DNA of 64,000 nucleotides from Candidatus Latescibacterota bacterium (GTDB lineage: Bacteria > Latescibacterota > UBA2968 > UBA8231): NCBI GenBank assembly GCA_965203175.1, contig OZ241867.1:3008001-3072000 (forward strand), read 5' to 3'. The notes under the pieces are model-generated. The model did no database searches and was not told where the DNA came from. It was given only the letters and a program-made list of their open reading frames with translations. Of this stretch, positions 5,842 to 55,031 are shown in pieces. How positions within the stretch are numbered: the stretch's first letter is position 1; every line of letters begins with the position of its first letter. The translations under genes and the position numbers were made by a program.

Positions 5842-5852
5842 GGAGTGGCTCC

Positions 5853-24464: not shown

Positions 24465-24505
24465 CCTTTAGCGAGAACGAAAAACGCGGGAAGAAAGGAA
24501 ATGCT

Positions 24506-27841: not shown

Positions 27842-27887
27842 TAAAGCAGTAGTTCGGACCGGAATTCGACAACAAGGGAGGGTATTT

Positions 27888-30638
27888 GTGAATATAGTTA
27901 GGAGTTTCCGCATCGGTGTGGTGGCAATCGTGATGTTAGGAGTGATGGTGGAAGACCTCCCCGCACAGGAAGATTTCGGCTCGCGCTTGGGCGTGCGTCG
28001 TGGCGGGGAGGTTTTTTACGACCCCATCGGGCCAGGGGTACTTTTCGATGCGTTGGATCCAGCGGTGAAGAAGTGGTACGTGCCGCAGGAACTCTTCAAC
28101 GAGTACCAATGGCGGCAACAGGACTATACCAATTACGCCCGGCGGCACTATTCGCGCTATGTGAACACAAGCCAAGAAGGCGATTATTTTTACGATCTGT
28201 ACGGGAATTACATCACCCGCGGCGAACTCATTTACGACTGGAGCATTGCAGCGCCGCAGACCTCGGGTAGCAGCCTGTTTAAGACCACCCGATTCAATAG
28301 CTGGTTTACGAACTTGGTCATCGCCTCGGATCAGAAGGGCCAATACGCCTATGCCCTGACCATTGGCGACCGCATCCGCACGACGCTGACGCCGATGACC
28401 TTTTCCAAACCGACCTTTGCCGGTATTCAGTTTGACCTAGCTACGGACAAATACGAGGCGACCTTTCTCGCCTCGCGCCCTAGTGCGCCTGGTTACGTCG
28501 GAGCCTCAGCAACGGCTACTACCGGTCGTTTCCGCTCGAATGACACCAACTTGATCGGCGGACGCGGCACCATGCAGGTCGGCGACTTTGTCAAGTTGGG
28601 AGCGACCTACATCAATGCTTTCAACTCTTCGACCAAAGGGCAGGCATTTCAGGGCAACCCCTTCAAGGGCACGCTCACCGAGGGCCAGAACAACGCAGAC
28701 GTTTCGCGTATTGAAGTGCGCTTGAGCGACGATTCGCCCGAGGATGGCAGGGCGGGCGCGGCCTTCTTTCAGGAGGAGATGATCATTACGACCATCGATG
28801 GCGAGCGCATCAGCAACCGTCGTCGCATCGGCAATAGCAACATACTCGCCTTCGGCCCCGCGGTACAGGGCGGTTTTCGCCGCGAGGGTTTCCTCGCGGC
28901 CGATGGCAACGAGGTCATCGTACTAGTGTACGATTTAGAAGGCCCTCAGTACCGCAACTCCTTCGGCCCCCAGCCAGAGCAGATCAAGAGCATTGAGTTC
29001 CTGTTGCTTTTGGCCAACGACTACCGGATCGACGTTACCTCCAACCGCCAGCTCAACGCCAACGGCCAGCCGGTCTTGATCTCTGAGGGCATTCCCGAGC
29101 GCACGATGCGCGCCGACGGCAACGTGCAGGATGGCTCGAATCAGGGATTTGTGAGCGTCAAATACGGGTTGCCGGTAGCCAATGAGATCTTCGGCTTTAC
29201 GCTCGATATTATGGATGTCAGCGGATTTTACTTATCGGGGGAATACGACCGCAATCGCCAGCACTTTCGCTATCCACGGCGGTCGGAAACCGACGTGACC
29301 CAGCATACGGCGTACAACAGCTCGGCCGACGCTTGGTTTGTCAATGTGTATAAACGCGCTTATCCCTACTTTGGCTTCGGCGAAGTCTATAATGTTGATC
29401 CCGACTACAGCACTAGTTCCTTTCTAGCTGGTACCCAAAACGATGCAGCGGACATCAATTACGACGATGACATCCGTTTCGTTTACGAATTCGTCGATGA
29501 CAACGACGATCAAGATCGCAATCCCGACTGGCTTCGGGCCAATTTCTCGCAGGATAGGGAAGTCTTCCCAGGGTTCGACGAAAACAACGACTTCATCAAC
29601 GACTTCAATCAGAACGACTCCGAGTGGCGCGAGAACACAGTGCCTGATTACGAGGAGCCGTTTCTGCGCTACGCATCCGATCGACCTGAGTTCCTCTTTG
29701 GTCTTGATATGAACAACAACGGTATCATTGACCGCTTTGAAAACGACATTTTACCAGACTATCTGTACAAACGGGATCGGCGCGGCTACAACATCTATGT
29801 AGGTTCTCATTTAGGGCCGGAGGCACGGCTGACTGTCGGTCGCCTCGACGAACGCCAGCTAGCAGACGCTCGCGAGAACGCCACCAACTACGCCTTGCTG
29901 ACCTTTGACAAGGACTACGCCAGCAAGGGGCGCGTGCAAATATACAACAACTATCGGCAGGTCCGCGACGATATTCGCGACAATGTGATAGAGTGGGTTG
30001 TGCGCGAGGGATCGCGCGGCGACCTAGTGCCCTATACCGACCCTCTCCCTCTGCGCGATGGCTGGGCTAATACCTTGTATCTCGGCTATCAGTACCAGAG
30101 CGACCACATCCACTTTAAGAACCGCCTTAAGTGGGAGGTTTTCAAACAGGACAATTTCGGCGAGCGACCGCTTGATGAACAGGACATCCGCGAGACGGCG
30201 TCCTTCTTCGGAGTCCTCAACAAGATCGATTATACGTTCAACCTCGGGATCCTCAAGTTCCAGCCGCGCTGGAAGAGCGAGTTCCAGCGCCAGCGGCCCT
30301 CGCGCCGCCAGGATACGCAGGTGCGGGTAGCGACCACCGAGTTGCACGAGCTGTGGTCGCTGGTTGTGCACGTCCCAATTCTGTCGCGCACCCAATTGCA
30401 GACCGGCCTAGAGTACCTGCTCGTCGAGCAGTTCCGCGAGGAGTTGGAAACCCATTTGCTGCGCTCGGACCGCAACGAGTTGGTCTATGCCTTGCAGTTT
30501 ACCAACAACGCCGAATACCTAGGCTACAACCTGTGGACCCAGACTGGATTTCGCGTGTCGCGGATTGATCGCGCTTCGGCCGAAAGGGCACGCACTGAAA
30601 CGGCCATATTCGTCACTGTGTACGCCGGTCTTGAGTAG
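27888..30638 (+). CDS. Large exported protein, probable outer-membrane beta-barrel with Asp/Asn-rich Ca-binding insert
   Basis: Signal peptide; many alternating aromatic beta-strands; DDNDDQD, DENNDFIND, DMNNNGIID; C-terminal strand AIFVTVYAGLE. Confidence 0.65.
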   Translation: MNIVRSFRIGVVAIVMLGVMVEDLPAQEDFGSRLGVRRGGEVFYDPIGPGVLFDALDPAVKKWYVPQELFNEYQWRQQDYTNYARRHYSRYVNTSQEGDYFYDLYGNYITRGELIYDWSIAAPQTSGSSLFKTTRFNSWFTNLVIASDQKGQYAYALTIGDRIRTTLTPMTFSKPTFAGIQFDLATDKYEATFLASRPSAPGYVGASATATTGRFRSNDTNLIGGRGTMQVGDFVKLGATYINAFNSSTKGQAFQGNPFKGTLTEGQNNADVSRIEVRLSDDSPEDGRAGAAFFQEEMIITTIDGERISNRRRIGNSNILAFGPAVQGGFRREGFLAADGNEVIVLVYDLEGPQYRNSFGPQPEQIKSIEFLLLLANDYRIDVTSNRQLNANGQPVLISEGIPERTMRADGNVQDGSNQGFVSVKYGLPVANEIFGFTLDIMDVSGFYLSGEYDRNRQHFRYPRRSETDVTQHTAYNSSADAWFVNVYKRAYPYFGFGEVYNVDPDYSTSSFLAGTQNDAADINYDDDIRFVYEFVDDNDDQDRNPDWLRANFSQDREVFPGFDENNDFINDFNQNDSEWRENTVPDYEEPFLRYASDRPEFLFGLDMNNNGIIDRFENDILPDYLYKRDRRGYNIYVGSHLGPEARLTVGRLDERQLADARENATNYALLTFDKDYASKGRVQIYNNYRQVRDDIRDNVIEWVVREGSRGDLVPYTDPLPLRDGWANTLYLGYQYQSDHIHFKNRLKWEVFKQDNFGERPLDEQDIRETASFFGVLNKIDYTFNLGILKFQPRWKSEFQRQRPSRRQDTQVRVATTELHELWSLVVHVPILSRTQLQTGLEYLLVEQFREELETHLLRSDRNELVYALQFTNNAEYLGYNLWTQTGFRVSRIDRASAERARTETAIFVTVYAGLE

Positions 30639-30648
30639 GAGGTTTCCC

Positions 30649-31407
30649 ATGCTGAAATATTTCACACCACTGCTTTTGGTCGGGTTACTTTTTCCGGGCT
30701 GCTCCTATCGCTACTATGCCGAAGACCTCAAACCACTGAGCGAGGCCGAGCAAGGAGCCAACAAGACGGTGGCCGACGATGGCACCGTATCCTATACCCA
30801 GGCTCGCCTTGAGATCAGCCTGCGGCCGATGACCGACGCGGAGTTGAACCGTCAGTTCAGCGCGTACTCCAACGAGGGGCCCAACTCACAGAACCCCTAC
30901 ACGTTTGGCAACTCGACGTACTTTCGCACTGGGGACACCCCGCAGCGCTTCACTGTTTTCCGCATGTATGTTTCCAATTACGAATATCCCAAAGTCTATC
31001 TCGATCCCAAAAAGGTCTATGTAACCACTCCTAACGGGCGCAAGTACTACGCGTTGAGATTCGAACAGCTCTCAATATACTATCGTCGCTACGTCGGCAG
31101 CGGCAAAGGCGGTGGGGAGCCTGGGATGCCCGGCAATGCCATGTTCACTTGGAAAGAGCGCGAAAGCATCTTGCGGCGCACGATGTTTCCCGATGAGGAT
31201 GTGTTCAGCGCTCAGGAGAACGAAGGGTATATCGTCTTCAAGCCACTGGCCCCGGATGTGGAGGAACTGACTGTTCATATCCCCGATGTGGTAGTGCGAT
31301 TCGACTATAAGGGGGATCCGATAGAGGACGTGGATATCGAAATGCACTTTGAGCGCGAGATTGGTCGCATCTATCCCGACGGACGCAAAGTGGCGACCAG
31401 CCAATAG
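30649..31407 (+). CDS. Lipoprotein of unknown function (Ig-like)
   Basis: ATG 30649 with AGGAGG RBS; lipobox FPGC; close paralogue of 46075..46821. Confidence 0.8.
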   Translation: MLKYFTPLLLVGLLFPGCSYRYYAEDLKPLSEAEQGANKTVADDGTVSYTQARLEISLRPMTDAELNRQFSAYSNEGPNSQNPYTFGNSTYFRTGDTPQRFTVFRMYVSNYEYPKVYLDPKKVYVTTPNGRKYYALRFEQLSIYYRRYVGSGKGGGEPGMPGNAMFTWKERESILRRTMFPDEDVFSAQENEGYIVFKPLAPDVEELTVHIPDVVVRFDYKGDPIEDVDIEMHFEREIGRIYPDGRKVATSQ

Positions 31408-42017: not shown

Positions 42018-44672
42018 TCAATAGGCCAGCGATAGAGTCCCCGAACGCTCCGTAGAGACGTTGTCCAAGTCGATGGCGAGCCGGTAGAGATAAATACCCG
42101 GCGGCGCGACCTGCCCTTGGCTGTCGCGGCCATCCCACTCAACTTGGAGGTTGCCCGCTGTCGAACCGCCGGTCTGGATCTGGGCAATGCGACGGCCAGA
42201 CAGATCGTAGATTTCGAGTTGGACATCGACCTGATCGAGGACGAGAAAAAGGTCGAAGGAAAAAGTGACTTCGTCGTTGATGCCATCGCCGTTGGGGGTA
42301 AAAGGGTTGGGGGCGATATGAGGCGTCCTGACGATTTGGTTGATCTCGTCGGCAACTACGAGGAGCGCATTGGTGGCGATGTCGGGGGTGGCGTCGCCAT
42401 CCTCGGCTGGTTGCGGGATGGATTCGACATCTGGGTCGCCTTGGTCATTCCACACCGAACTGGTGAACTCTTCTGAGCCGCGGAAGAGCTTGGAGCGGAA
42501 GACGATCTCGATGCTCTGGTCGAATTGGAAATGCTCGGCACCCATCAGGGGCAGCTTAATGTGCAGTTTGGACGAGCCGGTGCGCGGGTTGGTGACTACG
42601 CTTTGGGCAAATTGTCCCAAGCTATCGGTGCGGCCTGCTGCTGGGGCAAGGCGGATGGGATGGACGTCGCTCAGGGGATCGGTGCCCGTGCCAGGGGCGA
42701 TTTCGGTCCAGTCTTGGCCGTCGAAGCGCAAGGTGTCGATGCGCGTGTCTGCGCTGGGCACGGCGATCTCGATCCGGTTGAAGGTGGTGGCCTCGCCTGT
42801 TTTGAAGAAGGGTCGGACAAAGTAGCGGAAAGCCGTCTCCTCACCCAAGGGGACGCGCGAGGGGAAAATCTCAGCGACGATCCCCCCTGAGACCAGCGGT
42901 GCGTCGTAGTCGAACTCGATGAAGTCCAACAGCGCTGTGCTGTGCTGGGCGGAGTCGAAGAAGATGCGGAACTGGATGTAGCGAGTGCCGCCGGGCAAGG
43001 GCAGTTGGACGCCGGTGTTTTGCCACTCGGATTCGGGCAAGCTCTCGTCGATGAGGGCGTCTTCGAGCTTGAAAGGTGCCGACCAGAAGCTCCAGCCTAG
43101 GAGGCCGTCGTCGCCTAGGTCAACACCAAGCTCGTTGTATTGCAGTTCGCGCTCGGGGATGCGGCCTTCGGGAATCTTGATCCAGGAAAACAGATCGAGA
43201 AGATTGCCGTTTTCGTCTTGGGTATCCGAAAGGCCTGGTCCCAAGCGGCGGGCGTAGATGTGGGTGTCAAGGGTGTTGCCAACGCGGAATTGGATGCGGA
43301 TGTCGCCGTCGCGGCCGTCGCGGTTTCCGCGCCAGCGCACCTTGCCCCAGTTGACTTGATCGCCGTCAACATCGAGGGGGAACTGGCTTTCATAGGCATC
43401 GCGCTGCGAGCCGGCGAATTGCTCGATCTCGCGGTCGTAGCGCCGGATGCGCGGGGTGGATGTGCCTACGTCGATGATGGCCGAGATATACTGTCCGTCG
43501 ATGGCGTAGCCGTCGCCGAAGTAGCCCGCTTCGGCGGTTTCGACATAGGTGCCCTTGGGATCCGTCGAGACTACGTCGACGCGGCCGGCGACAAAGGGGT
43601 TGACGAATCGGAAATCCTTGACTACCGGATTGAACTGGCCGTTGGTGACGGGAACTAGTGTTCTACTCGCTTGGATGGTTTCGGAGCGGCTGCTGATCGT
43701 GGTCTGGTTGCCGTAGCGGATGTAGTAGTTGGCAATGGTGCTGGCGGGCAAGGTCGGCCGCGGGCGAAAGACAATGCGGTTGAGATAGTAGTAGCCCATC
43801 AAGTTGATGCCAACGCCGCCGCGGTTGTAAATGGCGGAGCCGTATCCTGTGCTAAGGTTGCCATCGACGATCAGTTCTGCGTCGACTCGACCGATTACTT
43901 GGGCAGTCGCCCAGTGATCGGCCGAGATGGGATCGGCGATCTCGCGGCGGAAGCCGTATTCACTCGGCACCACCATAAAGGGACGCTGGGGATCCTTGCC
44001 GGGAATGATGCCGCCAAACTCGCCGGCCTTGAAGCGCTGGTTGAGCAAGTAGGCGAGGTTGCGCAGGCTGTCCAGACGCACCGGCCGCAGCCAAGTGGTC
44101 ACCCCTTGGCCGTGCTCGGGCAGCGAGGGATCTTCGTCGATGAGTCCATCGCCGTCGTCGTCGATTCCGTTGATGGGATCCTCGTTGAGTTGGCCATCCC
44201 AATCGTCGTCAAAGAGCGTGTACAACCCGTCCTCGTTGAGTTGACCATCGCCGTCATTATCGAATTGAGGATCCGGTCCGTCCTCGTTGATGAGTCCATC
44301 GAGATCGTTGTCGATCAGTTCAAGTGGGTCTTCGTCGATGAGTCCGTCGCCGTCGTCGTCGATTCCGTTGGCTGGGTCTTCGTTGAGTTGGCCGTCGTCG
44401 TCGTTGTCCACTTGCTCGTCGGCTGGGTCTTCGTTGATCAGCGCGTCGTCGTCGTTGTCGACTAACTCGACGGGGTCTTCGTCGATGAGTCCATCGCCAT
44501 CGTCGTCGGCGATCAACTCAACAGCCCAACTGCGACCCAAGTCGAGGCGCCCGGTGACCGGCCGCAGGATCCAAGGATGCACATCGTCGCCGACTCGCCA
44601 CCGCTTGATTTCGGCAGAGCCGTTGCTGGACACAAACGCCACGCCGAGTACCGCTACCAACAACCTGATCAT
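42018..44672 (-). CDS. Large secreted protein with Asp-rich repeats, discoidin-like domain and C-terminal FlgD-Ig/T9SS CTD-like domain
   Basis: GGAGG RBS, signal peptide; 8 D(D/N)DxDGLI(D/N)EDP-like repeats; PNPFTPNGDGIND...IYDLSGR...WDGRD...PPGIYL...LSLAY*. Confidence 0.82.
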   Translation of the reverse strand: MIRLLVAVLGVAFVSSNGSAEIKRWRVGDDVHPWILRPVTGRLDLGRSWAVELIADDDGDGLIDEDPVELVDNDDDALINEDPADEQVDNDDDGQLNEDPANGIDDDGDGLIDEDPLELIDNDLDGLINEDGPDPQFDNDGDGQLNEDGLYTLFDDDWDGQLNEDPINGIDDDGDGLIDEDPSLPEHGQGVTTWLRPVRLDSLRNLAYLLNQRFKAGEFGGIIPGKDPQRPFMVVPSEYGFRREIADPISADHWATAQVIGRVDAELIVDGNLSTGYGSAIYNRGGVGINLMGYYYLNRIVFRPRPTLPASTIANYYIRYGNQTTISSRSETIQASRTLVPVTNGQFNPVVKDFRFVNPFVAGRVDVVSTDPKGTYVETAEAGYFGDGYAIDGQYISAIIDVGTSTPRIRRYDREIEQFAGSQRDAYESQFPLDVDGDQVNWGKVRWRGNRDGRDGDIRIQFRVGNTLDTHIYARRLGPGLSDTQDENGNLLDLFSWIKIPEGRIPERELQYNELGVDLGDDGLLGWSFWSAPFKLEDALIDESLPESEWQNTGVQLPLPGGTRYIQFRIFFDSAQHSTALLDFIEFDYDAPLVSGGIVAEIFPSRVPLGEETAFRYFVRPFFKTGEATTFNRIEIAVPSADTRIDTLRFDGQDWTEIAPGTGTDPLSDVHPIRLAPAAGRTDSLGQFAQSVVTNPRTGSSKLHIKLPLMGAEHFQFDQSIEIVFRSKLFRGSEEFTSSVWNDQGDPDVESIPQPAEDGDATPDIATNALLVVADEINQIVRTPHIAPNPFTPNGDGINDEVTFSFDLFLVLDQVDVQLEIYDLSGRRIAQIQTGGSTAGNLQVEWDGRDSQGQVAPPGIYLYRLAIDLDNVSTERSGTLSLAY
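44127..44510 (-). repeat. Eight tandem 16-17 aa Asp-rich putative Ca/metal-binding repeats
   Basis: DDDGDGLIDEDP, DNDDDALINEDP, DNDDDGQLNEDP etc.; near-identical DNA at 44131 and 44329, 198 bp apart. Confidence 0.85.
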
Positions 44673-45055
44673 CGAATACCTCCGCGCAAGAACGTAAGCC
44701 CTTGACTGTCTGCGACGAACATGACGAACATAACAAAGACGCCGGCGGCAGTTGCGCGCTCCATCTCAGTCCACATCTGCCGGGCCAATCTCGTATTTTA
44801 GACGTTTTGTTACCCTAATTATTTTGTTACCTATTATATAGTACAGTGGTGAACAACTCAAGATAGTCAGATCAGGCCGACAGGCACGAAAAAGAGGGAT
44901 CTTTGTCGTCAATCGCTTATGTAATCAGTGGAGGCGAGGCGCAGATCAAGGAACTCGCAGCAATTTACACGAGGATTGAGCACACCTAACTTATTGTTAT
45001 TCATTGATTTTATTAGTTATGAGCCCATTGTTTCTACGGCTGTCTCTAATATATC

Positions 45056-45084
45056 TTGACACGTCTTAGGCTATTGATTATCAT
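45056..45084 (+). promoter_or_regulatory. Sigma70-type promoter of the CBM9-lipoprotein-porV-TPR-exbBD operon
   Basis: TTGACA-N17-TATCAT; the ORF-track TTG start at 45056 coincides with this -35 box. Confidence 0.7.
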
Positions 45085-45133
45085 ACTGCCCTATATATTG
45101 AAAGATATCAAAAAACAGATAAGAAGGCGTCGG

Positions 45134-46078
45134 CTGAGTTACTGGTCGCGTTTGTTGTTTTTAGGGCTGGCGCTACAGACAACAGTAGGCTTAGCTAAAC
45201 CGGCTCTAGGTCACTATCCCGAAGGAACGGCCTACAGAGCCTTTCAATTTCCCGATCACTTGGTCCCCGCTATTGACGGAGATCTGACAGATTGGGAAGT
45301 TGTAGGCGACTCCTACGCCATATTAACGGGTCAGTTTCACGACCTGATTAGTCCAGAAGTTGAGGCGAGCGATTCGGACGACTTTGCTGCTCGTCTCATG
45401 GTAGGGTGGAATAAAGCGGAAAATAGACTCTACGTCGCCGCTCAGGTTCGCGATGATATGCATCAGATTGATCGTCCCGCCGGTAGTGCTGCGGTGCTTT
45501 GGGAAGACGACGCAATGGAATTATTTATCGACGCGGACCACTCGGGTGGACAATTCGCCAATTTCACCGAGTTGAGCCACGAAGAGCGGATACGGCGCAA
45601 CGGAGCTGAAGCCAACCACTTCGTTTTGGCTGGTCCGCCGCCCGACGAGGATTTTTTTGTCAATTTTTCTGCCGCCGCTTGGTACGCACTACCCGACGGT
45701 CCGTATACTAGAGCGGCGATTGAGTTTGTAGGTGTTTTGGGAGGAAAGGGAGTGACGAATTACGAGGTCATGCTCGTACCCTTTGATCGCATCGATGTTA
45801 ATGCGGTCTTTCAAAGCGAAGAGCATCTCTTGCAGGAAAATGAAATCCTTGGTTTTAACGTAGAGTTTAACGATTTTGATGTGCATTCAGAGCTTTTTGA
45901 TGCAAAGTGGTCGCTTTCGGGCCAACACAACTCGTATCGTTTTTCTGATCGCTTCACCGACTTGATCTTGATGCCGCTAGAGGGTACTTTTCAAGCGACG
46001 GTTGTGGAGCTGAGGTCTTGGGGGCGTTTGAAAGCTTCTTTGTTCACAGAGCTGTATCAACGAGGAGTTTCTGAATGA
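45134..46078 (+). CDS. Secreted CBM9/DOMON-like protein with C-terminal SWGRLK motif (paralogue of 20906..21808)
   Basis: IDGDLTDW, VGWN, DAMELFIDADHSGG, LVPFD, ILGFNV; ends TVVELRSWGRLKASLF...; start uncertain (CTG 45134 after AAGAAGG, or TTG 45152). Confidence 0.72.
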   Translation: MSYWSRLLFLGLALQTTVGLAKPALGHYPEGTAYRAFQFPDHLVPAIDGDLTDWEVVGDSYAILTGQFHDLISPEVEASDSDDFAARLMVGWNKAENRLYVAAQVRDDMHQIDRPAGSAAVLWEDDAMELFIDADHSGGQFANFTELSHEERIRRNGAEANHFVLAGPPPDEDFFVNFSAAAWYALPDGPYTRAAIEFVGVLGGKGVTNYEVMLVPFDRIDVNAVFQSEEHLLQENEILGFNVEFNDFDVHSELFDAKWSLSGQHNSYRFSDRFTDLILMPLEGTFQATVVELRSWGRLKASLFTELYQRGVSE

Positions 46079-46821
46079 TGAGTTTCACACGAGTATTATC
46101 TTTGGTTTTGATCGTCGGTTCGGGTGTGCTAGGTTGTGGATATAGCTATTACACGGGCCCATTGCAGCCTGGCCAAGATCAGGCCTCATCTATTAGTGTG
46201 GCAGATGACGGGACCTTGACTTTTGCCCAGGATCGCTTTGAAGTGCGACTCAAGCCGATGACTGACGAGGAGTTGAATCGCCAGTTTTTCAACAATTCCC
46301 AAGCAGGTCCTAAGTCCACAAACCCCTATACCTTTGGCAACACGGTATTTTGGGGGACGGACGAAGAAAAACAGCGATTCACCGTCTTCCGTCTCGGCGT
46401 TAAGAATTACGCCTATCCCAAAGTCAAAATCGATCCGAGCAAAATCGTCGTTAAAGCGAGCAATAAGCGCGAGTATTGGAGCCTCAACTTTGAGCAACTC
46501 GACACGTATTATCGCGCCTATGCCATAGGATATAGGGGCAACGAATATGCGCGCTATCAGGAACGCCGTGACTTGCTGCGGCGAACGATGCTCAAAGACG
46601 AGGAGATCTTCAGCGGCCAAGAGGCGGAGGGCTTCGTCATTTTTCCCGTGCTTCACCCCGACGTGAGTGATATTGAGGTCCAAGTACTCGATGTAATCCT
46701 GCGATTTGACTTTCGCAACGAGCCGGTGGAGACCACCAATATTTCCTATAAATTCGTCCGAGATATCGGCAAGATTTACAAGGACGGCACGATTGTTCCT
46801 AGAGTCGCTAAGGCAAACTAG
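46075..46821 (+). CDS. Lipoprotein, paralogue of 30649..31407
   Basis: Lipobox VLGC; shared VADDGT, PMTDxELNRQF, NPYTFGN, QRFTVFR, NYxYPKV, RFD motifs. Confidence 0.82.
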   Translation: MMSFTRVLSLVLIVGSGVLGCGYSYYTGPLQPGQDQASSISVADDGTLTFAQDRFEVRLKPMTDEELNRQFFNNSQAGPKSTNPYTFGNTVFWGTDEEKQRFTVFRLGVKNYAYPKVKIDPSKIVVKASNKREYWSLNFEQLDTYYRAYAIGYRGNEYARYQERRDLLRRTMLKDEEIFSGQEAEGFVIFPVLHPDVSDIEVQVLDVILRFDFRNEPVETTNISYKFVRDIGKIYKDGTIVPRVAKAN

Positions 46822-46856
46822 CCTTTAAGCGAGACCACCAAGGAGGAGTTGGCATT

Positions 46857-47792
46857 ATGAAATCTCTGAGAATGCTTAGCGTTTTAGTTGGCTTGCTGCT
46901 CATCGTCCAATCAAGCGAGGGTGTTGTCAACATTCAGAATGTGGGTTCGGGCGCTCGTGCGCAGGGGTTGGGCAACAGCTTTGTGGCGGTGGCCGACAAT
47001 GCGGATGCGGTGTTTGCCAATCCGGCGGGGTTGGGTCAGGTGTCTCAGCGTCAGGCGTCGTATACGAATGTGTCGCTTTTGTATGCGGGCATTGAAGGCG
47101 ACGACTTGGGTCAGCACGTGGTGTCCTATGCGCAGCCATTGGGCGACAAGATGGGCTTGGGGTTGGGCTATGAGCGGATTGGTTCGTCTTTAATGAGCGA
47201 GAATGGGGCGTTTGTGTCGCTGTCGTATCAGGTGGAGCGTCGGCTGCAGGTGGGCTTGTCGGCCAAGTATTTATTTTGGAGTGTGGGGGCCATTCCCGAC
47301 GATGATGGTCGGGCGGATCCGTTGTCGAACCAGAGTGCGGGCAACGTCGGCTTGGATTTGGGCTTGTTGTGGCAGAGTCCGGTACAAGGGGCGCAGGTGG
47401 GGGTGTTGTTGAAGAATATCAATCAGCCGAATGTGGCCTTTGGCGAGGTTGCTGGGGATGCGGATGCGGGTGCGTTGCCGATGGATGTGCATGTGGGGGT
47501 TGGGTATCGTCTGAGCAGTCAGTCGTTGCTCTCGATTCAGTATGTGCGTCGCGACTTGACCGGGGAGGGATCGGATGACGGGTTGGTCGTTGGTGGGGAG
47601 ACGCAGTTGGTGGAGGGGTTGTTGTTGCGGGCGGGGGGGCGTCGTTTGTTGTCGGAGGATGCGGGTGGGGGGTTGAATGCGGGTTTGGGCTATCAGTGGA
47701 ACCAGTTGGTGTTCGACTATGCGTATGACATTGGTTTGGATTTGACCGAAACCAATGGCGCCCACCGGTTCTCCTTCGCATACGAATTCTAA
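46857..47792 (+). CDS. PorV/PorQ-family (FadL-like, T9SS-associated) outer-membrane beta-barrel
   Basis: GARAQGLGNSFVAVADNADAVFANPAGL N-terminal signature; LDLGLL, KNINQP, FDYAY, HRFSF, terminal Phe. Confidence 0.8.
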   Translation: MKSLRMLSVLVGLLLIVQSSEGVVNIQNVGSGARAQGLGNSFVAVADNADAVFANPAGLGQVSQRQASYTNVSLLYAGIEGDDLGQHVVSYAQPLGDKMGLGLGYERIGSSLMSENGAFVSLSYQVERRLQVGLSAKYLFWSVGAIPDDDGRADPLSNQSAGNVGLDLGLLWQSPVQGAQVGVLLKNINQPNVAFGEVAGDADAGALPMDVHVGVGYRLSSQSLLSIQYVRRDLTGEGSDDGLVVGGETQLVEGLLLRAGGRRLLSEDAGGGLNAGLGYQWNQLVFDYAYDIGLDLTETNGAHRFSFAYEF

Positions 47793-47849
47793 TACCAAAA
47801 AAGCCCCCGATGAACTCCAAACTAAGAACCTAGACAAGGAGATGCACAA

Positions 47850-50800
47850 ATGACGGTCTGGGCTGGACTTATCGCGCTGGGATTGGGGCTAGGAGCTAGC
47901 CTTTTCCTACCGGTGCCGCAAAATCTGAAAACCAATTTTGACGCCGGACAATCTCTCTACGCCCTCGGCGAGTTTGAAGGGGCGATCATCGAGTATTCAA
48001 AGATCGTCAAATTCAGTAGCAAGGCCGTGCGCACCGATAGTGTACGGGTGACGTTTGGCAACGACCTAGAATTGCCCGTAGTCGCGGCGGCTTGGTACCA
48101 GCTAGGCAATGCCTACAAAAAGAGCGGGCAACACGAAAAAGCGGTGGAAGCCTATCGCCAAGTTATCGACGCAGGGAATGTGACCGAGGATTTTAGGTCG
48201 TTGGTGCAGTTTCAAGTCGCCGAGACCCGGTTCTTCGCCAAAGAGTTCAGCGAGGCAGCAAAGGAATACAAGCGCTATGTCGAGCTATTCCCCGAGACGA
48301 GGGAAGCCGGCAAGGCGTATTTTTACGCGGGCTGGAGCGAGTTTAACACAAAAGAGTACGACCAGTCCATCGAAACGCTCAACGGCATGCTAGCGGCTTA
48401 TCCTCAAGATCGCTATGCGCCGGATTCCCAGTTCCGGATCGCCAGTGCACTTTATGAGAAGGGTGAGTACGGCGCAGCCGTCGATATGACCCAGATAGTC
48501 CTCGACAAATACCCCAATAGTCCGGTCATTGCCCAAGCCCTCTATCTGAAGGCCAATGCCTATGACCAGATGGGGCGAGACGCAGAGGCAATTAAATCCT
48601 ACCGCGATGTGCGCGACCTCTACGACCGGATGTTTGAACTCTTGCGCGGTTCGTTTCGCGAGGGTAAGAATGTCGACTTTGAAAACTATCGACAGCTCTT
48701 TGAGACCTCCTCGTTGCGCGTCGCTGAGATTTTCCGCAAAACAGACAAGTTTGAGGAAGCCTACAGAGAATTGATCGCCGCTCAAGAAACTGCCGAGGAG
48801 CGCTTTTACAAGGCCAAGGTGCAGATGAGAATCGGCGACAACTACATGGAGTGGGATAAGTTCGACCAGGCATGGACTGCTTACAACCAAGTGATTGAAC
48901 TCTACGGAGATACGCCCTATCCATCTAACGCTCAATATCAGAAAGGCGAAGCTAAATACTTTGCCGGAGACTACGACGCTGCCCGTGAAGACTATTTACA
49001 ACTATTGGAGGACTATCCAGATAGCGAGACGGGTTTGCGCTCCGCAGCGCTCTACAGCGCAGGCTGGTCTGCAGAGAAACTCGGCGCGGCGGACCAGGCT
49101 ATTGTGAGCTACACGCAGGCAGTGGACAACTTCCCTCGCTCTGACCAAGCGCCGCTGTGCTTGTTGCGCATCGCTCGGCTCAACTACGAGCAGCAGAAAG
49201 TCCAAGAGGCCATTGAAGCCTACAAGGCCATAACGGAGAGCTATCAGGATACGCGGCATACGGCCGATGCTTACTATGGCCTTGGTATTCTCTACCGGGA
49301 CGAAGGGCGGAAGGATGAGGCCATCGCTGCTTTTTCTAAGGTTGACCGCGATGCCCGCGAGACGTATATCGCTGCGCTGATTGAGGCAGCCAATCTCTAT
49401 ATTTCTCAAGATCGCATCGCCGAGGGGCGTGCGTTGCTCAATCAATTGCTGGAAGGCGTGACCGGCGACCGCGATTTGGAGGCTAGGGCCCATTTCCAGA
49501 TGGCCCAACTCGACCTCAACAATAAAAACTACGTCGACGCAGTCGAGCGCTACACCATGGTGCTTGAAGAGTACCCAGAAAGCGATGTCATTCGCGACAC
49601 CCGCTACGGCCGTGCATTGGCCTACCACTATTCGGGCCGTTACGACCGTGCGCTAGTCGATTACAAGTGGCTGTTGGACACCAAGATTCCCAAGGCGATG
49701 CAGCTAAAGGTCTCGTTCTCGATGGCACTCTCGTACTCGGCGGAAGGCAATGACGACGAGGCGGAGAAGCTGCTGAATGAGGTCATTGCTTCAGGAGACG
49801 AGAGCTTAGTGCGTTCGGCGCGACTGCAGTTGATCTCAATGGCCGAAAAGAAGGGCAATCCAGAGGAAGCGGTGCGCATCTACGAGGAGATGTTGGCTAC
49901 CACTACCTCTAGCGAGGACCGGGAGCGCTTGCTCATTCGCTTGGCCAATGCCTACTTCAAACTAGATAAGTTCCAGCAGAGTATTGAAGCGGCTCAGGAG
50001 CTAATCGACTTGGCCGTCAATGTCGAGAGCATTGCCAATGCGCTTTTCGTCCAAGGCAACTGTTTCTATAGGTCGGAGCAGTTCGTCCAAGCGATTGCCA
50101 CGTATAACACCATTATCGAAAACTATCCGCAGATTGCTTGGGCCAAAAATGCCCAGTTCCAGATCGGCGTAGCTTATAACAGACTATCGGCTAACGGCAA
50201 TGTCGAAGTGCTACCAGCGATGTCAAAGGCGTTTAATACCTATTACACCCAATATCCCGATGACGACCGCGCTGTGCATGCCTATTACTACGATGCTTGG
50301 GCGCATTATCGAATGGGTAAATGGCGTACTGCCAGCGATGTTTTTGCTGGCCTAGCGGATCAGTATCCGCAGTCCCGCTATGCATCTGAAGCGCTTTTTC
50401 GCGCTGGCGATGCCCTGTTTAATATGACCAACGTGAGCGGCTTGGAGGAAAAAAACCGGAATTTCCTAGATGCCATGGTCTTCTATGACCGAATCATTAA
50501 GCGCTATCCTAAGTCGAGCTACGTGGACGATGCGCTTTACAACAAGGCTTGGTGTCTGATCAACCTCGACCGCCAGGAAGAAGCGGTGCCGGTCTTTGAG
50601 CGAATCGTCGCTCAATATCCCAATGGTACTTATGGGGCACGTAGCCAGTTTACGCTCGGAGACTACTATTACGGCCTCAAGGACTACGAGAAGGCCACCG
50701 AGAGCTACCGGGCTTTCTTGGAGCGTTTTCCCGCTGATAAGCTAATTGCCCAAGATCGAGCACTGCCGAAAAAGGCAAGGACTCTGCTCGGACATTTGGC

Positions 50801-51095
50801 TGAGATCGATGCCTACAATATTTATGCAATGGGCGAAAAGCTCTTAGCCGAGAAGAATTACGACGAGGCAATGGCGATCTTTAAGGAAGTGCAGCAGAAG
50901 TACCCCAAGAGCGACCAGGCTGTCAATTCGTTGGTCAACATCGGTGCCGCCCACATGGCCCAAGAGGAATTCCGCCAAGCCGGTGCCGTCTTTCAGGAGG
51001 TCGTCGACAACTATGGCGACAACCCCAAGTACAGGACGCAGGTAGACTATGCCAGAGAGCAGCTACAGGTAATGCAGGAAGCTCGCGTCCTATAA
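47850..51095 (+). CDS. 1081-aa membrane-anchored TPR solenoid protein (CpoB/BamD-like repeats)
   Basis: N-terminal hydrophobic segment, then continuous TPRs with YPxS-type linkers. Confidence 0.88.
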   Translation: MTVWAGLIALGLGLGASLFLPVPQNLKTNFDAGQSLYALGEFEGAIIEYSKIVKFSSKAVRTDSVRVTFGNDLELPVVAAAWYQLGNAYKKSGQHEKAVEAYRQVIDAGNVTEDFRSLVQFQVAETRFFAKEFSEAAKEYKRYVELFPETREAGKAYFYAGWSEFNTKEYDQSIETLNGMLAAYPQDRYAPDSQFRIASALYEKGEYGAAVDMTQIVLDKYPNSPVIAQALYLKANAYDQMGRDAEAIKSYRDVRDLYDRMFELLRGSFREGKNVDFENYRQLFETSSLRVAEIFRKTDKFEEAYRELIAAQETAEERFYKAKVQMRIGDNYMEWDKFDQAWTAYNQVIELYGDTPYPSNAQYQKGEAKYFAGDYDAAREDYLQLLEDYPDSETGLRSAALYSAGWSAEKLGAADQAIVSYTQAVDNFPRSDQAPLCLLRIARLNYEQQKVQEAIEAYKAITESYQDTRHTADAYYGLGILYRDEGRKDEAIAAFSKVDRDARETYIAALIEAANLYISQDRIAEGRALLNQLLEGVTGDRDLEARAHFQMAQLDLNNKNYVDAVERYTMVLEEYPESDVIRDTRYGRALAYHYSGRYDRALVDYKWLLDTKIPKAMQLKVSFSMALSYSAEGNDDEAEKLLNEVIASGDESLVRSARLQLISMAEKKGNPEEAVRIYEEMLATTTSSEDRERLLIRLANAYFKLDKFQQSIEAAQELIDLAVNVESIANALFVQGNCFYRSEQFVQAIATYNTIIENYPQIAWAKNAQFQIGVAYNRLSANGNVEVLPAMSKAFNTYYTQYPDDDRAVHAYYYDAWAHYRMGKWRTASDVFAGLADQYPQSRYASEALFRAGDALFNMTNVSGLEEKNRNFLDAMVFYDRIIKRYPKSSYVDDALYNKAWCLINLDRQEEAVPVFERIVAQYPNGTYGARSQFTLGDYYYGLKDYEKATESYRAFLERFPADKLIAQDRALPKKARTLLGHLAEIDAYNIYAMGEKLLAEKNYDEAMAIFKEVQQKYPKSDQAVNSLVNIGAAHMAQEEFRQAGAVFQEVVDNYGDNPKYRTQVDYAREQLQVMQEARVL

Positions 51096-51138
51096 CCCTG
51101 ATTTCTTTGCGTCCTAACTTTAAGGAGGGAGAAAGAAA

Positions 51139-51792
51139 ATGATTGAACTTTTTCGAGAAGGCGGACCTTTCATGTATCCTTTGATGCTCTGGTCTATGCT
51201 GTCTATTGCGTTCTTTCTCGAGCGCATCTGGACGTATGCACGGCTGCGCTCTGAGGATCAATTGGCCGAAATCACCAACGATATCAACTCGCGTATCGAC
51301 TCGGGTGCTTCCCTTGACCAACTCAGAGAGTACTGCGCCGAGGTTGGCAAGCTCGAAGGCGAGGTGTACGGCGAGGGGATCGAGCGCTTTGAGCACTTAT
51401 CGCGCGAGCAACGCACGATGGAGGAGATGCGCGAGGAAATGAACGGCACGGTTGAACGCGCCGCCTTGGGGTATCTCGAACGGTATCTGGCCGTTATCGA
51501 CTTCGTGTCCAAATCCGTGGTGTTGCTCGGTCTACTAGGCACGGTCAACGGTATGATCAACGCTTTTGAAGGTATTGCGGAAAAGGGTCTCGGTGAGCCG
51601 ACGATCGTCGCCGCAGGTATTTCCGAAGCACTGATCACTACAGTTACAGGTCTGGTGATCGCCGTGCCTTCAATCGCCATCTTCACGTACTTTAGCAACC
51701 GCGCCACGGGCAAGTCCGTTGAGTTTGAAGCATATGGCCACGGTTTCGTCGACGCCCTATTGCGCCGTTGGCAAGGCACCCAAGCTGCCTAA
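51139..51792 (+). CDS. exbB: MotA/TolQ/ExbB proton-channel family protein
   Basis: GGPFMYPL, LLGLLGTVNGMI, GISEALITTVTGLVIAVP. Confidence 0.93.
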   Translation: MIELFREGGPFMYPLMLWSMLSIAFFLERIWTYARLRSEDQLAEITNDINSRIDSGASLDQLREYCAEVGKLEGEVYGEGIERFEHLSREQRTMEEMREEMNGTVERAALGYLERYLAVIDFVSKSVVLLGLLGTVNGMINAFEGIAEKGLGEPTIVAAGISEALITTVTGLVIAVPSIAIFTYFSNRATGKSVEFEAYGHGFVDALLRRWQGTQAA

Positions 51793-51821
51793 GGGCGGCC
51801 TTTTTAGGAGGCATGAAATAG

Positions 51822-52229
51822 ATGGCTGAGAGAGTAGAAAAAAAAGAACTGAACATGCCCGATCTGACGCCGATGATCGATGTGGTCTTTCAGCTACTCA
51901 TCTTCTTCATGGTGACTGCTGTGTTCGCCATTACTCCGGGTTTGGACATCAAATTGCCCGAGGCCGAAGAGGCTCAGGCTCCGGAGAAGGAAAACCTCTT
52001 TATCGTTGTGGATCAGGACGGCAACATGAAGCTGAACCACAAGTCGGTGACCTTTGCGACCCTCAAAGAGGAATTGCAGGCGAAGAGACAGCTACTAGAC
52101 AACACCACGATGATTATCATCCAAGGAGATGAGCGCTCCACGCACGGACAAATCGTCCAGATCATGGACATCGCTCGCCAAGTGGGTGTCATTGATCAGG
52201 TCATCGCCACGGAACCGCAGCGCAACTAA
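51822..52229 (+). CDS. exbD: ExbD/TolR family protein
   Basis: DLTPMIDVVFQLLIFFMVT with the conserved Asp; IQGD..., IMD. Confidence 0.95.
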   Translation: MAERVEKKELNMPDLTPMIDVVFQLLIFFMVTAVFAITPGLDIKLPEAEEAQAPEKENLFIVVDQDGNMKLNHKSVTFATLKEELQAKRQLLDNTTMIIIQGDERSTHGQIVQIMDIARQVGVIDQVIATEPQRN

Positions 52230-52266
52230 GTGAGGGTTCTAGGCCCTTCCAAGAGGGGGAAGAACT

Positions 52267-53643
52267 GTGGTAGACGAGTATAGAGTAGACGAATATAAAA
52301 AAGCAGTACAGGCCCAGCGCCAAAAAACGGCCTATATAGCGGTCGGCGCAGCCTTTCTCATTCACGTACTTTTCATCCTGTCCAAGTGGGTGGTAATCGC
52401 CGCCGGCTTGGCGGGTGCCGGGGTGCTGGTATATGCCCTGTATTCAGCTACCACCGGCCGTCGGCTGAACATGGGCGTGGCCTTTATGCTCTCGGTAGCT
52501 ATTCACGCTGGCGTCTTCGTTTACGATCATCTCTTTGGCATTGGCGAAGAAGAGACAAAGGAGGCGCTAATCATTTTCCGTGCTCCTCCGCCAATTCTCG
52601 AAAAGAACTTCGACTTAGCCAAACGTCCCGAGATATCCGAAGTGCAGATGGAGATGCTGCAGTCGATGGCACCGCCGGATTTGCCGCAGGATATATCGGC
52701 GATAGCCGATGTTAGCGCGGTAGGTAGCGACCTGCTGAGTTCGGTCTTGCCTGGTACGCAGGTCTTGGGTGCCTTTTCAGGTGCCAAGGCCGAAGAACTA
52801 GCCTTCGACGAGGTCGCGATGATCGAACTGGCTGAAACGTCGGCACCGGTGCAAGAGGCTCTGAGTCTGAGACACGAATTACTCAATGTCGGCGACTTGG
52901 ACATCGGTCGCTATCAAGCGATCTTGATTCAGGACCCAGACAACAAACGCGCTATCCGCGGCTTCTTTAACATGACAGTCATTGACTACGACATCGCAGA
53001 CAAGAACCGCGATCGGTTCCCAACTGCGGTAGAGGAGTTGATGCGCTATATGCGCGATCATACCCAAATTAATGCCCGAATTGAGGGCACTACCTTGGAA
53101 TTTTCGGATCCGCGCATCATGGACGCCCCCATGATTTACGTGACGGGCAATGATGCCGTCTTGCAAATCAGCAATACAGAGAAGACCAACTTAGGTGATT
53201 ATCTCAAGAACGGTGGTTTTCTCTATGCCGAGGAGATTCGCCAAAGCGACGCTGAGAACGGACTTGATGGCAAGGAAGCTGGAGTTTCGGGTACGCCGTT
53301 TGACCGGCAGTTCAAGGCCCTGATGAAAGATCCGCTGGTGCTGGGTAGCGATGGCTCCAAGTGGCAGAAAGTGCCCAAGAGCCACGATCTCTACTATAGC
53401 TTCTGGGATTTTCCCGATGGCCCGCCGATGGGAGGCGCACCCGCTGGCAATGTGTTCGACTTGGAGATGCTGGAACTGCGCGGTCGGGTTGCAGTGGTTT
53501 TCAGCGACCTGAATATTAGCTGGTACTGGGGAGACCCGCTGGCCGATGCACGAGAGCGCGGATTGCAGTTTGGGGTTAACCTAATCGTCTACGCGTTGAC
53601 CCAACCGGGTGGCATCGCCAATGTGACCCAATTTACCCAATAA
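52267..53643 (+). CDS. TonB/TolA-like membrane anchor (SxxxH) plus linker and C-terminal DUF4159-like domain
   Basis: TM segments incl. MLSVAIHAGV; acidic/Pro linker; PMIYVTG, LGDYLKNGGFL, HDLY.SFWDF, GRVAVVFS, FGVNLIVYALT. Confidence 0.75.
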   Translation: MVDEYRVDEYKKAVQAQRQKTAYIAVGAAFLIHVLFILSKWVVIAAGLAGAGVLVYALYSATTGRRLNMGVAFMLSVAIHAGVFVYDHLFGIGEEETKEALIIFRAPPPILEKNFDLAKRPEISEVQMEMLQSMAPPDLPQDISAIADVSAVGSDLLSSVLPGTQVLGAFSGAKAEELAFDEVAMIELAETSAPVQEALSLRHELLNVGDLDIGRYQAILIQDPDNKRAIRGFFNMTVIDYDIADKNRDRFPTAVEELMRYMRDHTQINARIEGTTLEFSDPRIMDAPMIYVTGNDAVLQISNTEKTNLGDYLKNGGFLYAEEIRQSDAENGLDGKEAGVSGTPFDRQFKALMKDPLVLGSDGSKWQKVPKSHDLYYSFWDFPDGPPMGGAPAGNVFDLEMLELRGRVAVVFSDLNISWYWGDPLADARERGLQFGVNLIVYALTQPGGIANVTQFTQ

Positions 53644-53666: not shown

Positions 53667-53706
53667 ACAGGTGCCCTACCGATGAACTGATCGGTAGGGC
53701 ACCTGT
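53667..53706. terminator. Perfect 17-bp stem-loop between convergent genes
   Basis: ACAGGTGCCCTACCGAT-GAACTG-ATCGGTAGGGCACCTGT followed by GTTT. Confidence 0.8.
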
Positions 53707-53741
53707 GTTTCGGCCGTTCCTCCACCAGCTTCGGCCTTTTT

Positions 53742-55031
53742 TTAGGTCGATCTTCTTATCTGGTCCCAGACGTCGAAGTATGTTGGAAAGGTTTTGCCGA
53801 CGCATCTCGGGTCATTGATGCGGATTCCGGGCACTCGCAATCCGACTAGGGCAAAACTCATAGCTACTCGGTGATCCTTATAGGTATCGATGGTGCTGCC
53901 TTTAGGCTTAGACGGCGCGATGGTAACGCCATCTCTATGCTCTTCTACTTTCACGCCGAGCCGACGCAATTGGGCGACCATAGCAGCAATCCGGTCGGTC
54001 TCCTGCCAGCGCGTGTGCTCGATGTTGCGGATACGCACTGGATTCGTGGCAAAGGGTGCAATCGCGGCCAGCGTAAGCGAAGTATCCGATATAGCCTTCA
54101 TATCGACGTCTATTCCCCTGAGTCGATTTGGGCCGATCACCTCAACTCCGTGGGCGTAACGGTTGACTGTGCATCCCATCTTCTCGAGCACATCGATGAA
54201 GTGGATATCGCCTTGGGCTGAGTCGGCGGAGATATCGACTACGCGCACCCGGCCGCCATTGAGCGCAGCGGCAGCAAAGAAGTACGAGGCGTTGGAAGCA
54301 TCCGGTTCAATGGCGTAGGCACGGGGCTTATAGCATTGGCCGCCGGCGACGCGAAAACGCCGGTAATCGTCGTGTTGTACCTCGATTCCGAATGCCTGCA
54401 TTACCGCCATAGTGATGTCGATATATTCGGTTTTGAACTCGCCGACCATCTCGATTTCCAAGCCGTTGTCCGTGTAGGGTGCGACTAGCAGCAGCGAGGT
54501 AAGGAACTGGCTGCTCTTGCTGGCGTCGAGCTGGGTTTTTCCGCCTTTGAACCCCTTGGCTTGCACCTCTACTGGCAGGCATCCGTTGGCAAAGCGCGAA
54601 CGTGCGTCGATACCGAGTTGGCCGAGCGCGTCGAGCAGGTCGGAAATCGGCCGGCTCTGGCGCATGGGCGCGTCGCCGTCGATGATGAAAGTCCCGTTGC
54701 CGAGCGCGACATAACTCGTGATCGACCGAGAGGTAGTGCCCGAATTGCCAATGTACAGCTCGGCACCATTGGTGGGGATCCGTCCACCATTGCCTGTGAC
54801 TGTAAAGCTGGCCGCCTTTGGATCGGCCTCTATAGAGACGCCGAGTTTGCGCAATGCTTGAACCATGTAGTCGGTATCGTCGCTAAAGAGTGCACCCGTA
54901 AGGTGCGATTCTCCGTTGACTAGTGCTGCAACTAGCAACGCCCGGTTGGTGTAGCTTTTGGACCCGGGTACGGCGACCACGGCATCGAGTGGCTCTTGCA
55001 GAGGTTGTATTTCGAGCGAATCGGCGTTCAT
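53742..55031 (-). CDS. aroA: 3-phosphoshikimate 1-carboxyvinyltransferase (EPSP synthase)
   Basis: PGSKSYTNR, GNSGT, SSQFLTSLL, EPDAS, ETDRI, DHRVAM, KTFP. Confidence 0.97.
   Translation of the reverse strand: MNADSLEIQPLQEPLDAVVAVPGSKSYTNRALLVAALVNGESHLTGALFSDDTDYMVQALRKLGVSIEADPKAASFTVTGNGGRIPTNGAELYIGNSGTTSRSITSYVALGNGTFIIDGDAPMRQSRPISDLLDALGQLGIDARSRFANGCLPVEVQAKGFKGGKTQLDASKSSQFLTSLLLVAPYTDNGLEIEMVGEFKTEYIDITMAVMQAFGIEVQHDDYRRFRVAGGQCYKPRAYAIEPDASNASYFFAAAALNGGRVRVVDISADSAQGDIHFIDVLEKMGCTVNRYAHGVEVIGPNRLRGIDVDMKAISDTSLTLAAIAPFATNPVRIRNIEHTRWQETDRIAAMVAQLRRLGVKVEEHRDGVTIAPSKPKGSTIDTYKDHRVAMSFALVGLRVPGIRINDPRCVGKTFPTYFDVWDQIRRST

Follow-up and report, generated by a model that had tools for sequence, protein, structure and literature searches.

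A DUF4159-headed, TonB/TolA-like anchored protein encoded with an ExbB-ExbD motor in Latescibacterota: a candidate force transducer

Background

For a long time TonB and TolA were the sole proteins known to carry the output of ExbBD/TolQR-type motors to the outer membrane, until a class of transducers headed by a domain of the vWA (von Willebrand factor A) type was added to them in 2025. A locus in the genome of Candidatus Latescibacterota bacterium (GenBank assembly GCA_965203175.1, contig OZ241867.1) raises the question of whether such motors also work through a head of another type. The locus lies in a stretch of 64,000 nucleotides, hereafter the window, which corresponds to positions 3008001-3072000 of a single-contig genome of 6.58 Mb; coordinates are positions in the window unless marked as genome positions. 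The gene following exbD in this locus codes for a 458-amino acid (aa) protein, termed the anchor, with a TonB/TolA-like transmembrane helix and a C-terminal DUF4159 domain, which an initial annotation had read as a new force transducer. The analysis presented here favours, with a rough probability of 0.62, a reading in which the gene products assemble into a machine that spans the envelope and runs on the proton motive force, with the DUF4159 protein as its third, force-carrying component. If this is true, the DUF4159-headed class would provide the first functional context for an uncharacterised domain family, and ExbBD/TolQR-type motors would accept interchangeable heads. The class is conserved together with a tetratricopeptide repeat (TPR) scaffold, a lipoprotein and a barrel of its own, and reaches up to a dozen copies per genome. 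The module is also a concrete candidate for a role in a phylum with a type 9 secretion system (T9SS) translocon, more than 100 T9SS-type cargo proteins and no recognisable T9SS motor.

Results and discussion

A seven-gene operon with a TonB/TolA-like third component

The operon comprises seven co-directional genes on the + strand (45056-53643), with intergenic gaps of -4 to 57 nt, in the order P6, LIPO7, PorV/PorP-like barrel, 1081-aa TPR protein, ExbB, ExbD and DUF4159 anchor:

45056..46078, + strand: P6, a secreted CBM9-like protein (Pfam CBM9_1, 31.2 bits, cut-off 23.4; start codon uncertain, TTG at 45056)
46075..46821, + strand: LIPO7, a lipoprotein of an unnamed family (Cys21 invariant in 20 of 20 aligned sequences)
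46857..47792, + strand: PorV/PorQ/PorP-like outer-membrane beta-barrel, 311 aa (signal peptide, C-terminal Phe)
47850..51095, + strand: 1081-aa TPR protein ('TPR1080' family) with an N-terminal hydrophobic anchor
51139..51792, + strand: ExbB/TolQ-family proton-channel subunit (Pfam MotA_ExbB, 81.6 bits, cut-off 22.9)
51822..52229, + strand: ExbD/TolR-family subunit (Pfam ExbD, 97.2 bits, cut-off 25.4)
52267..53643, + strand: ANCH, the TonB/TolA-like anchored protein with a DUF4159 head, 458 aa, proposed force transducer
53667-53683 / 53690-53706, no strand: hairpin 3' of the anchor gene, with a perfect 17-bp stem and a 6-nt loop

The last five genes (46857-53643) lie where the initial annotation had placed them, tightly packed and ending in the 17-bp hairpin, while the start of the operon lies two genes further upstream, with the genes for the CBM9-like protein (45056-46078) and the lipoprotein (46075-46821).

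The helix, linker and head of the anchor

Three elements of the anchor carry the proposal:

52471..52536, + strand: transmembrane helix, residues 69-90, with S76-x3-H80 (supported by His conservation and TonB helix alignment)
52561..52647, + strand: post-helix motif, residues 99-127 (F104, P109, L111, K113, L117, K119, R120, P121) that may act as a 'motor box' or bind a partner
52984..53598, + strand: DUF4159 domain (PF13709), Pfam residues 240-444; the modelled head spans residues ~200-455

The S-V-A-I-H seen in the initial annotation occupies residues 76-80 of the protein, in the helix ...LSVAIHAGVFVY... (residues 69-90), which aligns with the helix of the canonical TonB of the same genome (E 0.013). 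Conservation of the histidine, on which the transducer reading had been made to depend, is extensive: His80 is nearly invariant in a 34-row alignment (A1; 21-63% identity), and in a 139-row alignment of relatives, of which the representative library contains 743 at E<=0.001, it is found in 74 of the 85 rows having a residue at that column (59 of 70 without the 15 close orthologues), being retained down to ~22% identity. The position four residues before it is occupied by alanine, serine or glycine in 77 of 81 rows (A 43, S 27, G 7). A basic/Pro motif follows the helix, conserved across the family, nearly invariant among orthologues and better kept than the helices themselves; distant relatives retain a phenylalanine of it in 55 of 66 rows, a proline in 64 of 67, a lysine in 54 of 68 and P121 in 62 of 80. 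TonB and TolA carry a 'motor box' strand after the helix, as described in PMC12204202, and by analogy the anchor motif, which is placed where this box sits, may do the same job. A complex prediction with two copies of ExbD (residues 42-135) and anchor residues 88-140 scored 0.02 against a mark of 0.32, a result that counts neither for nor against binding.

The AlphaFold2 model of the anchor (mean predicted local distance difference test score, pLDDT, 78.9) contains helices at residues 2-63 and 66-90 and an alpha/beta head at ~200-455. Between them lies a linker of ~110 residues (91-200) that is predicted to be disordered (pLDDT <50 over 123-199); the linker of the initial annotation is thus present, and its Pro/acidic character applies to a moderate degree only. 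The head is modelled with pLDDT >90 over most of 210-450 and matches DUF4159 with 89.4 bits (cut-off 25.9) over profile positions 6-202 of 202. It also matches Protein Data Bank (PDB) entry 4i66 (a structural-genomics entry, Hoch_4089) both in sequence (E 1.1e-26) and in fold (E 2.5e-9, TM-score 0.76 on the target), the next fold matches, to ThuA-like proteins and the IFT52 N-terminal domain, being weak. DUF4159 is the only Pfam match in the 458-aa protein, NCBIfam yielded nothing at E<=0.01, and no TonB_C, TolA or vWA family was found in it. The view that the C-terminal domain is DUF4159-like, rather than TonB_C or TolA_C, is hence confirmed by Pfam, the PDB sequence match and Foldseek.

Some 65 extra residues precede the S-x3-H helix in the 458-aa protein. 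The more distant orthologues (~390-420 aa) begin just before this helix, which indicates that the first ~65 residues are an addition in the close relatives (family f1). They probably form a two-helix hairpin that would keep the head in the periplasm, and the charges, with a K/R-rich N-terminus and RR before the third helix, are consistent with this. Like the S-x3-H helix, the first of the added helices can be aligned with that of TonB, and it may be a duplicate of a TonB-like helix. The extra region (residues 1-66, 52267-52465) is hydrophobic, and the A-x3-H of its first helix is conserved among the 14 close homologues aligned.

Motor and partner proteins

The Pfam matches place ExbB and ExbD firmly above the family cut-offs, and all 21 ExbD sequences in the alignment keep the transmembrane Asp20. 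None of the NCBIfam equivalog cut-offs for tolQ, exbB, tolR and exbD is reached by the two proteins, the ExbB protein scoring 80.4 bits with tolQ and 55.9 bits with exbB, both far under the cut-offs.

The 1081-aa protein is an anchored TPR protein as initially annotated, with 282.5 bits on TPR_6 and an N-terminal hydrophobic segment. It also matches the YbgF/CpoB-type model (294.4 bits in nine stretches), the BamD-type model (235.7 bits) and the PorW/SprE model (117.2 bits, cut-off 250). The barrel, initially assigned to the PorV family, scores under the curated NCBIfam cut-offs for PorV_fam (73 bits, cut-off 90), PorP/SprF (48.8, cut-off 90.55) and PorQ (42.4, cut-off 220) and is accordingly termed PorV/PorP-like, as a distant relative only. 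A near-identical second copy of the barrel gene occurs at genome positions 4466216-4467226 (618 bits, 663 bits for the self match), far from any module. The operon's LIPO7 matched no Pfam or NCBIfam family, and an atlas search returned unnamed lipoprotein clusters only. Its AlphaFold2 model (pLDDT 87.4) shows an immunoglobulin-like beta-sandwich with a helical insert, with 1lmi (MPT63) as best Foldseek match (E 3.7e-4).

Conservation of the gene order

The five genes from the barrel to the anchor co-occur in related loci. Among the 80 best loci from a search with a 13-row alignment (A3), most of them close orthologues and few from beyond the phylum, 68 contain a full-length anchor. Where the locus has enough upstream room (at least 500 nt for ExbD), the gene directly upstream of the anchor codes for ExbD in 65 of 67 loci; ExbB (60 of 62), TPR1080 (49 of 50), the PorV-like barrel (36 of 38), LIPO7 (28 of 35) and P6 (28 of 34) also lie upstream of the anchor. 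The two loci without ExbD (L106 and L113) are distant paralogues, and two ExbD genes occur in four of the 68 full-length loci. The related loci extend to 48-57% identity in other Latescibacterota families. More telling than these counts is the recurrence of the arrangement in two other anchor subfamilies, ~30% identical, which also follow exbB-exbD; the C-terminal domain is thus linked to exbBD in three subfamilies. One locus (L112) has the order barrel ... TPR1080-ExbB-ExbD-anchor-anchor-LIPO7, and of 20 anchor loci sampled from seven genomes of other families, four (L129, L131, L132 and L133; one in each of the four family f10 genomes sampled) read TPR1080-ExbB-ExbD-ExbD-anchor(-anchor)-LIPO7. 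The module at 6.17 Mb of the present genome is a further instance.

At E<=1e-10, 149 of the 151 sampled genomes of the phylum contain members of the anchor family. Strong matches (1e-90 or better), often in at least 12 copies, are confined to some families; in f2, f3, f4 and f8 the matches are weak and number one to four. Orthologues of P0005 were found in 92 of the 151 genomes (f1, 63 of 63; f2, 0 of 30; f3, 0 of 19). A cluster look-up of ten anchor-family representatives named only members of the Latescibacterota.

Paralogous modules in the genome

Five TPR1080 modules occur in the genome, each with a ~1080-aa protein of >700 bits and all with LIPO7:

genome 2.80 Mb: TPR1080-ExbB-ExbD-ExbD-LIPO7; an anchor lies at a distance of 12 kb
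genome 3.06 Mb: the operon described here
genome 5.63 Mb and 6.50 Mb: TPR1080-anchor-LIPO7, without adjacent motor genes
genome 6.17 Mb: TPR1080-x-x-anchor-LIPO7-x-ExbB-ExbD-ExbD, with an anchor subfamily ~30% identical

Three of the six ExbB loci of the genome are part of these modules and one belongs to a canonical exbB-exbD-exbD-tonB set at 3.503 Mb; the genome further has four TonB_C matches and 32 Plug-domain receptors. The LIPO7 proteins of the 5.63 and 6.50 Mb modules end in an AgmX/PglI (GltG/GltJ-type) domain (61.8 and 48.6 bits, cut-off 40).

Standalone secreted DUF4159 proteins are also encoded, for example at genome positions 3350298-3350957 and 1053738-1054643. A second anchored DUF4159 member in the window (4618-5856, - strand) is an orphan: it lies among genes of the M19 dipeptidase and enolase-superfamily type, and no motor genes are close to it. 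DUF4159 occurs behind a CarboxypepD_reg domain too, the representatives of the DUF4159 fusions being P0144, P0149, P0174, P0213, P0251 and P0247. At genome positions 3333699-3337886 (- strand), adjacent genes for 586- and 767-aa proteins join a BlaR1/M56 domain, ExbD-like periplasmic domains and a FlgD_ig/CHU_C-like tail.

Transcription and surroundings of the operon

The operon is real, conserved and present in RNA libraries. The window DNA is found mainly in sponge metagenomes, and metatranscriptome contigs (four runs, four studies) leave no bin of 45114-53591 uncovered, with next to nothing in 44800-45113 and, in two of the four runs, nothing past 53592. In all four runs the contigs start in the bin 45114-45427, within P6. 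One contig of 1651 nt corresponds to 51051-52700 and joins the end of the TPR gene, exbB, exbD and the start of the anchor gene, and further contigs cross gene junctions at 50459-51563, 51769-52279, 46726-47498 and 47666-48118. This pattern fits a single transcription unit from P6 to the anchor.

The 17-bp hairpin sits between the anchor gene and a convergent 5-enolpyruvylshikimate-3-phosphate (EPSP) synthase gene; a 102-nt stretch containing it folds with -50.4 kcal/mol (z = -6.19), and none of 200 shuffled sequences folds as well. A second, weak hairpin at 53712-53743, with a 5-bp GGCCG/CGGCC stem followed by seven T, overlaps the end of the EPSP synthase gene. A promoter and terminator scan gave counts not above those in shuffled sequence (5 vs 7.4; 11 vs 9.7). 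As initially annotated, neither a TonB-dependent receptor nor pal is nearby: the window contains no Plug-domain match, the nearest lying at genome position 3005329, before the window start, and no OmpA/Pal family member is encoded in the genes flanking the operon.

Possible link to type 9 secretion

The genome looks like that of an organism with a T9SS that lacks a recognisable motor. The SprA translocon is encoded at genome positions 2481570-2487959 (618 bits with a neighbouring match), and SprA is present in 146 of the 151 sampled phylum genomes. GldM was detected in none of these 151 genomes, a blank that carries little weight since the GldM model was silent in all control genomes. In the present genome GldL and the first GldM domain gave no match, the GldL and GldM blanks resting on Bacteroidota-trained models without a positive control, and GldK gave no match reaching its cut-off. 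The genome has at least 150 matches to the T9SS-type C-terminal domain CHU_C, of which nearly all pass the cut-off; the search scored 150 of 243 candidates, so the true number may be higher. Among the matches listed, 32 of 42 P6 copies and 10 of 18 LIPO7 copies lie within 5 kb of a CHU_C match, compared to 16% of random positions. One such arrangement in the window comprises P6 (20906-21808), three large proteins, two with a T9SS-type C-terminal match (21987-30638), and LIPO7 (30565-31407). Divergent from the operon, an 884-aa protein (42018-44672, - strand) has a CHU_C/FlgD_ig-type end (CHU_C 36.1 bits, cut-off 27), its NCBIfam type A and type B scores being under the cut-offs.

The P6 and LIPO7 families thus adjoin genes with the T9SS-type C-terminal domain genome-wide. 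The module more probably handles cell-surface proteins, by exporting, attaching or moving them, than serves import through TonB-dependent receptors, and it may have a part in handling T9SS-type cargo. At genome positions 2958213-2969087, between genes for 1249-, 908- and 1038-aa proteins, is the genome's best PorV-like match (147.5 bits, cut-off 250), in a region which may be a PorU/PorV-type attachment set.

Proposed mechanism and alternative explanations

Coupling of the anchor to the motor is, as a prediction from sequence, well supported by the comparative evidence; for its docking on ExbB, the transmission of force and the partners of its head, we infer the following arrangement. ExbB and ExbD would form an inner-membrane 5:2 stator, as their family membership and the conserved ExbD Asp20 suggest. 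The 458-aa protein would take the part of TonB or TolA, with its S76-x3-H80 helix on the rim of the ExbB pentamer, and the conserved motif just outside the membrane would contact the periplasmic part of the motor or the TPR protein. The disordered linker of ~110 residues would carry the DUF4159 head across the periplasm, where, in place of TonB_C, it would engage the outer-membrane side, the likely partners being the anchored 1081-aa TPR scaffold, LIPO7 and the PorV/PorP-like barrel.

Several findings weigh against this arrangement. Of the S-H-L-S helix face, for which PMC12204202 gives the motif spacing, the anchor has the S and H alone; the +7 and +11 positions are D87 and G91, in columns that are variable among relatives. 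The related loci are mostly close kin, by which the synteny counts are not independent and their independence is overstated. The RNA-library contigs neither prove a single transcript nor exclude carried-over DNA. Two of the five TPR1080 modules (5.63 and 6.50 Mb) have no adjacent motor, and among the matches listed none of 13 anchors, six ExbB genes and five TPR1080 genes lies within 5 kb of a CHU_C-type gene. Furthermore, 16 of the 20 anchor loci sampled in other families have no ExbB or ExbD within ~9 kb, the neighbours of these orphan anchors (M19 dipeptidases, an enolase-superfamily enzyme, HEAT and FG-GAP proteins) showing no common theme, and DUF4159 is also found behind regions 2 and 4 of extracytoplasmic function (ECF) sigma factors (three representatives) and BlaR1/M56 sensors (two representatives), fusions as compatible with sensing or binding as with a mechanical role. 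These fusions and the many orphan copies are the reason to retain the explanation that the DUF4159 protein, anchored in the membrane, acts in the periplasm as a sensor, regulator or scaffold, its histidine serving packing or signalling, and that ExbBD works with the TPR protein or with a canonical TonB elsewhere; the standalone secreted DUF4159 proteins, the canonical exbB-exbD-exbD-tonB set and the four TonB_C matches agree with it. Orphan tonB paralogues are common too, however, so that orphan anchors argue weakly for such a role. With ExbD immediately preceding the anchor in 65 of 67 loci, as in two further subfamilies, and with a helix motif of the TonB/TolA type resembling the genome's own TonB helix, a sensor or scaffold is unlikely.

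Other alternatives keep the motor and change the task. The TPR-ExbB-ExbD-DUF4159 modules, with barrel, LIPO7 and P6, could represent the missing proton-driven energiser or cargo-handling arm of the T9SS, a Ton-like motor replacing GldLM, also known as PorL/PorM. The SprA-bearing families f2, f3, f4 and f8 have no strong anchor matches, however, so that SprA and the anchor show no simple one-to-one co-occurrence, and the distance of the anchor, ExbB and TPR1080 genes from CHU_C genes also argues against this specific role, which is decidedly unlikely. The chance is slimmer still that the same mechanism serves as the lineage's stand-in for Tol-Pal, tethering or remodelling the outer membrane and cell wall with the CpoB/YbgF-like TPR protein as coordinator. 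The YbgF/CpoB and BamD scores of the TPR protein (294.4 and 235.7 bits) point in that direction, as do the higher scores of ExbB and ExbD with the tolQ/tolR than with the exbB/exbD models, all under cut-off, and the best TolB score in the genome of 179.1 bits against a cut-off of 343.15, which leaves no TolB over cut-off. Against it, no Pal/OmpA- or TolB-type gene lies in or beside the operon (the region covered by the search for Pal); five paralogous modules in one genome, and anchors in at least 12 copies in some genomes, are unlike a housekeeping Tol system, and in two sister families none of the 30 and none of the 19 genomes yielded the P0005 orthologue. Use of the small PorV/FadL-like barrel for substrate import, by analogy with the opening of receptors by TonB, is highly improbable: Ton systems are import systems and the barrel gene is conserved in 36 of 38 loci, but the barrel has no Plug domain, a head other than TonB_C has no known TonB-box pairing, and the 32 Plug-domain receptors and the canonical TonB set of the genome serve that job.

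Comparison with known systems

The closest published relatives of the DUF4159 anchor are the vWA-headed 'motor-driven force transducers' of Planctomycetes-Verrucomicrobia-Chlamydiae (PVC) bacteria, Bacteroidetes and others, which are encoded downstream of TPR-tolQ-tolR-tolR and whose SHLS helix was docked on the motor by AlphaFold3 (Williams-Jones et al., Mol Biol Evol 2025, PMC12204202). The two classes share a TPR gene, a tolQ/exbB-like gene, one or more tolR/exbD-like genes and then a single-pass protein, which in both has a His-bearing TonB-like helix, a disordered linker, a conserved post-helix element and an alpha/beta head other than TonB_C. The present head is DUF4159 (4i66 fold), with no vWA family in Pfam, and most orthologous loci have one ExbD (two in 4 of 68), unlike the heterologous pair of the vWA-headed class; the operon also adds the PorV/PorP-like barrel, the lipoprotein and the CBM9-like protein, and its lineage is Latescibacterota. 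While the transducer reading of the initial annotation is supported by the conservation of the histidine and by synteny, this parallel class, published in 2025, qualifies the word 'new'.

The operon resembles the Ton and Tol systems (ExbB-ExbD-TonB and TolQ-TolR-TolA) in its motor families, the conserved ExbD Asp, the position of the third gene, the S-x3-H helix and the long linker reaching into the periplasm. It differs from them in having no TonB_C or TolA_C domain and no TonB-dependent receptor, TolB or Pal nearby, as well as in the absence of the distal L and S of the S-H-L-S face and the presence of extra N-terminal helices. The Agl-Glt gliding machinery of Myxococcus combines a TolQR-type motor with large TPR proteins, outer-membrane barrels and lipoproteins, as does the operon. 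This likeness, drawn in the initial annotation, extends to the AgmX/PglI domain on the LIPO7 proteins of two paralogous modules, but the operon's own LIPO7 is without AgmX; scores of 32 bits for GltG (cut-off 650) and 18.7 bits for GltJ (cut-off 450) leave it without an equivalog of either, and the transducer head is DUF4159.

Within the Fibrobacteres-Chlorobi-Bacteroidetes (FCB) group, the Fibrobacter succinogenes cluster FSU_2396-2403 codes for OmpA, two TPR proteins, ExbB, two ExbD and a TonB-family protein, which are more abundant on cellulose; the cluster is associated with a cell-surface protein complex (PMC6851124). The likeness is by gene content only, with an outer-membrane protein, large TPR proteins and ExbB, ExbD and a third protein, which in Fibrobacter, unlike in the operon, is annotated as TonB family. 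No published description of a DUF4159-headed transducer was found in the accessible literature, where DUF4159 itself is named in the 2016 Pfam paper, and loci of this type may appear in the supplementary tables of PMC12204202. With its DUF4159 head and its barrel and lipoprotein partners, the Latescibacterota module is a variant of the recently recognised non-TonB force transducers.

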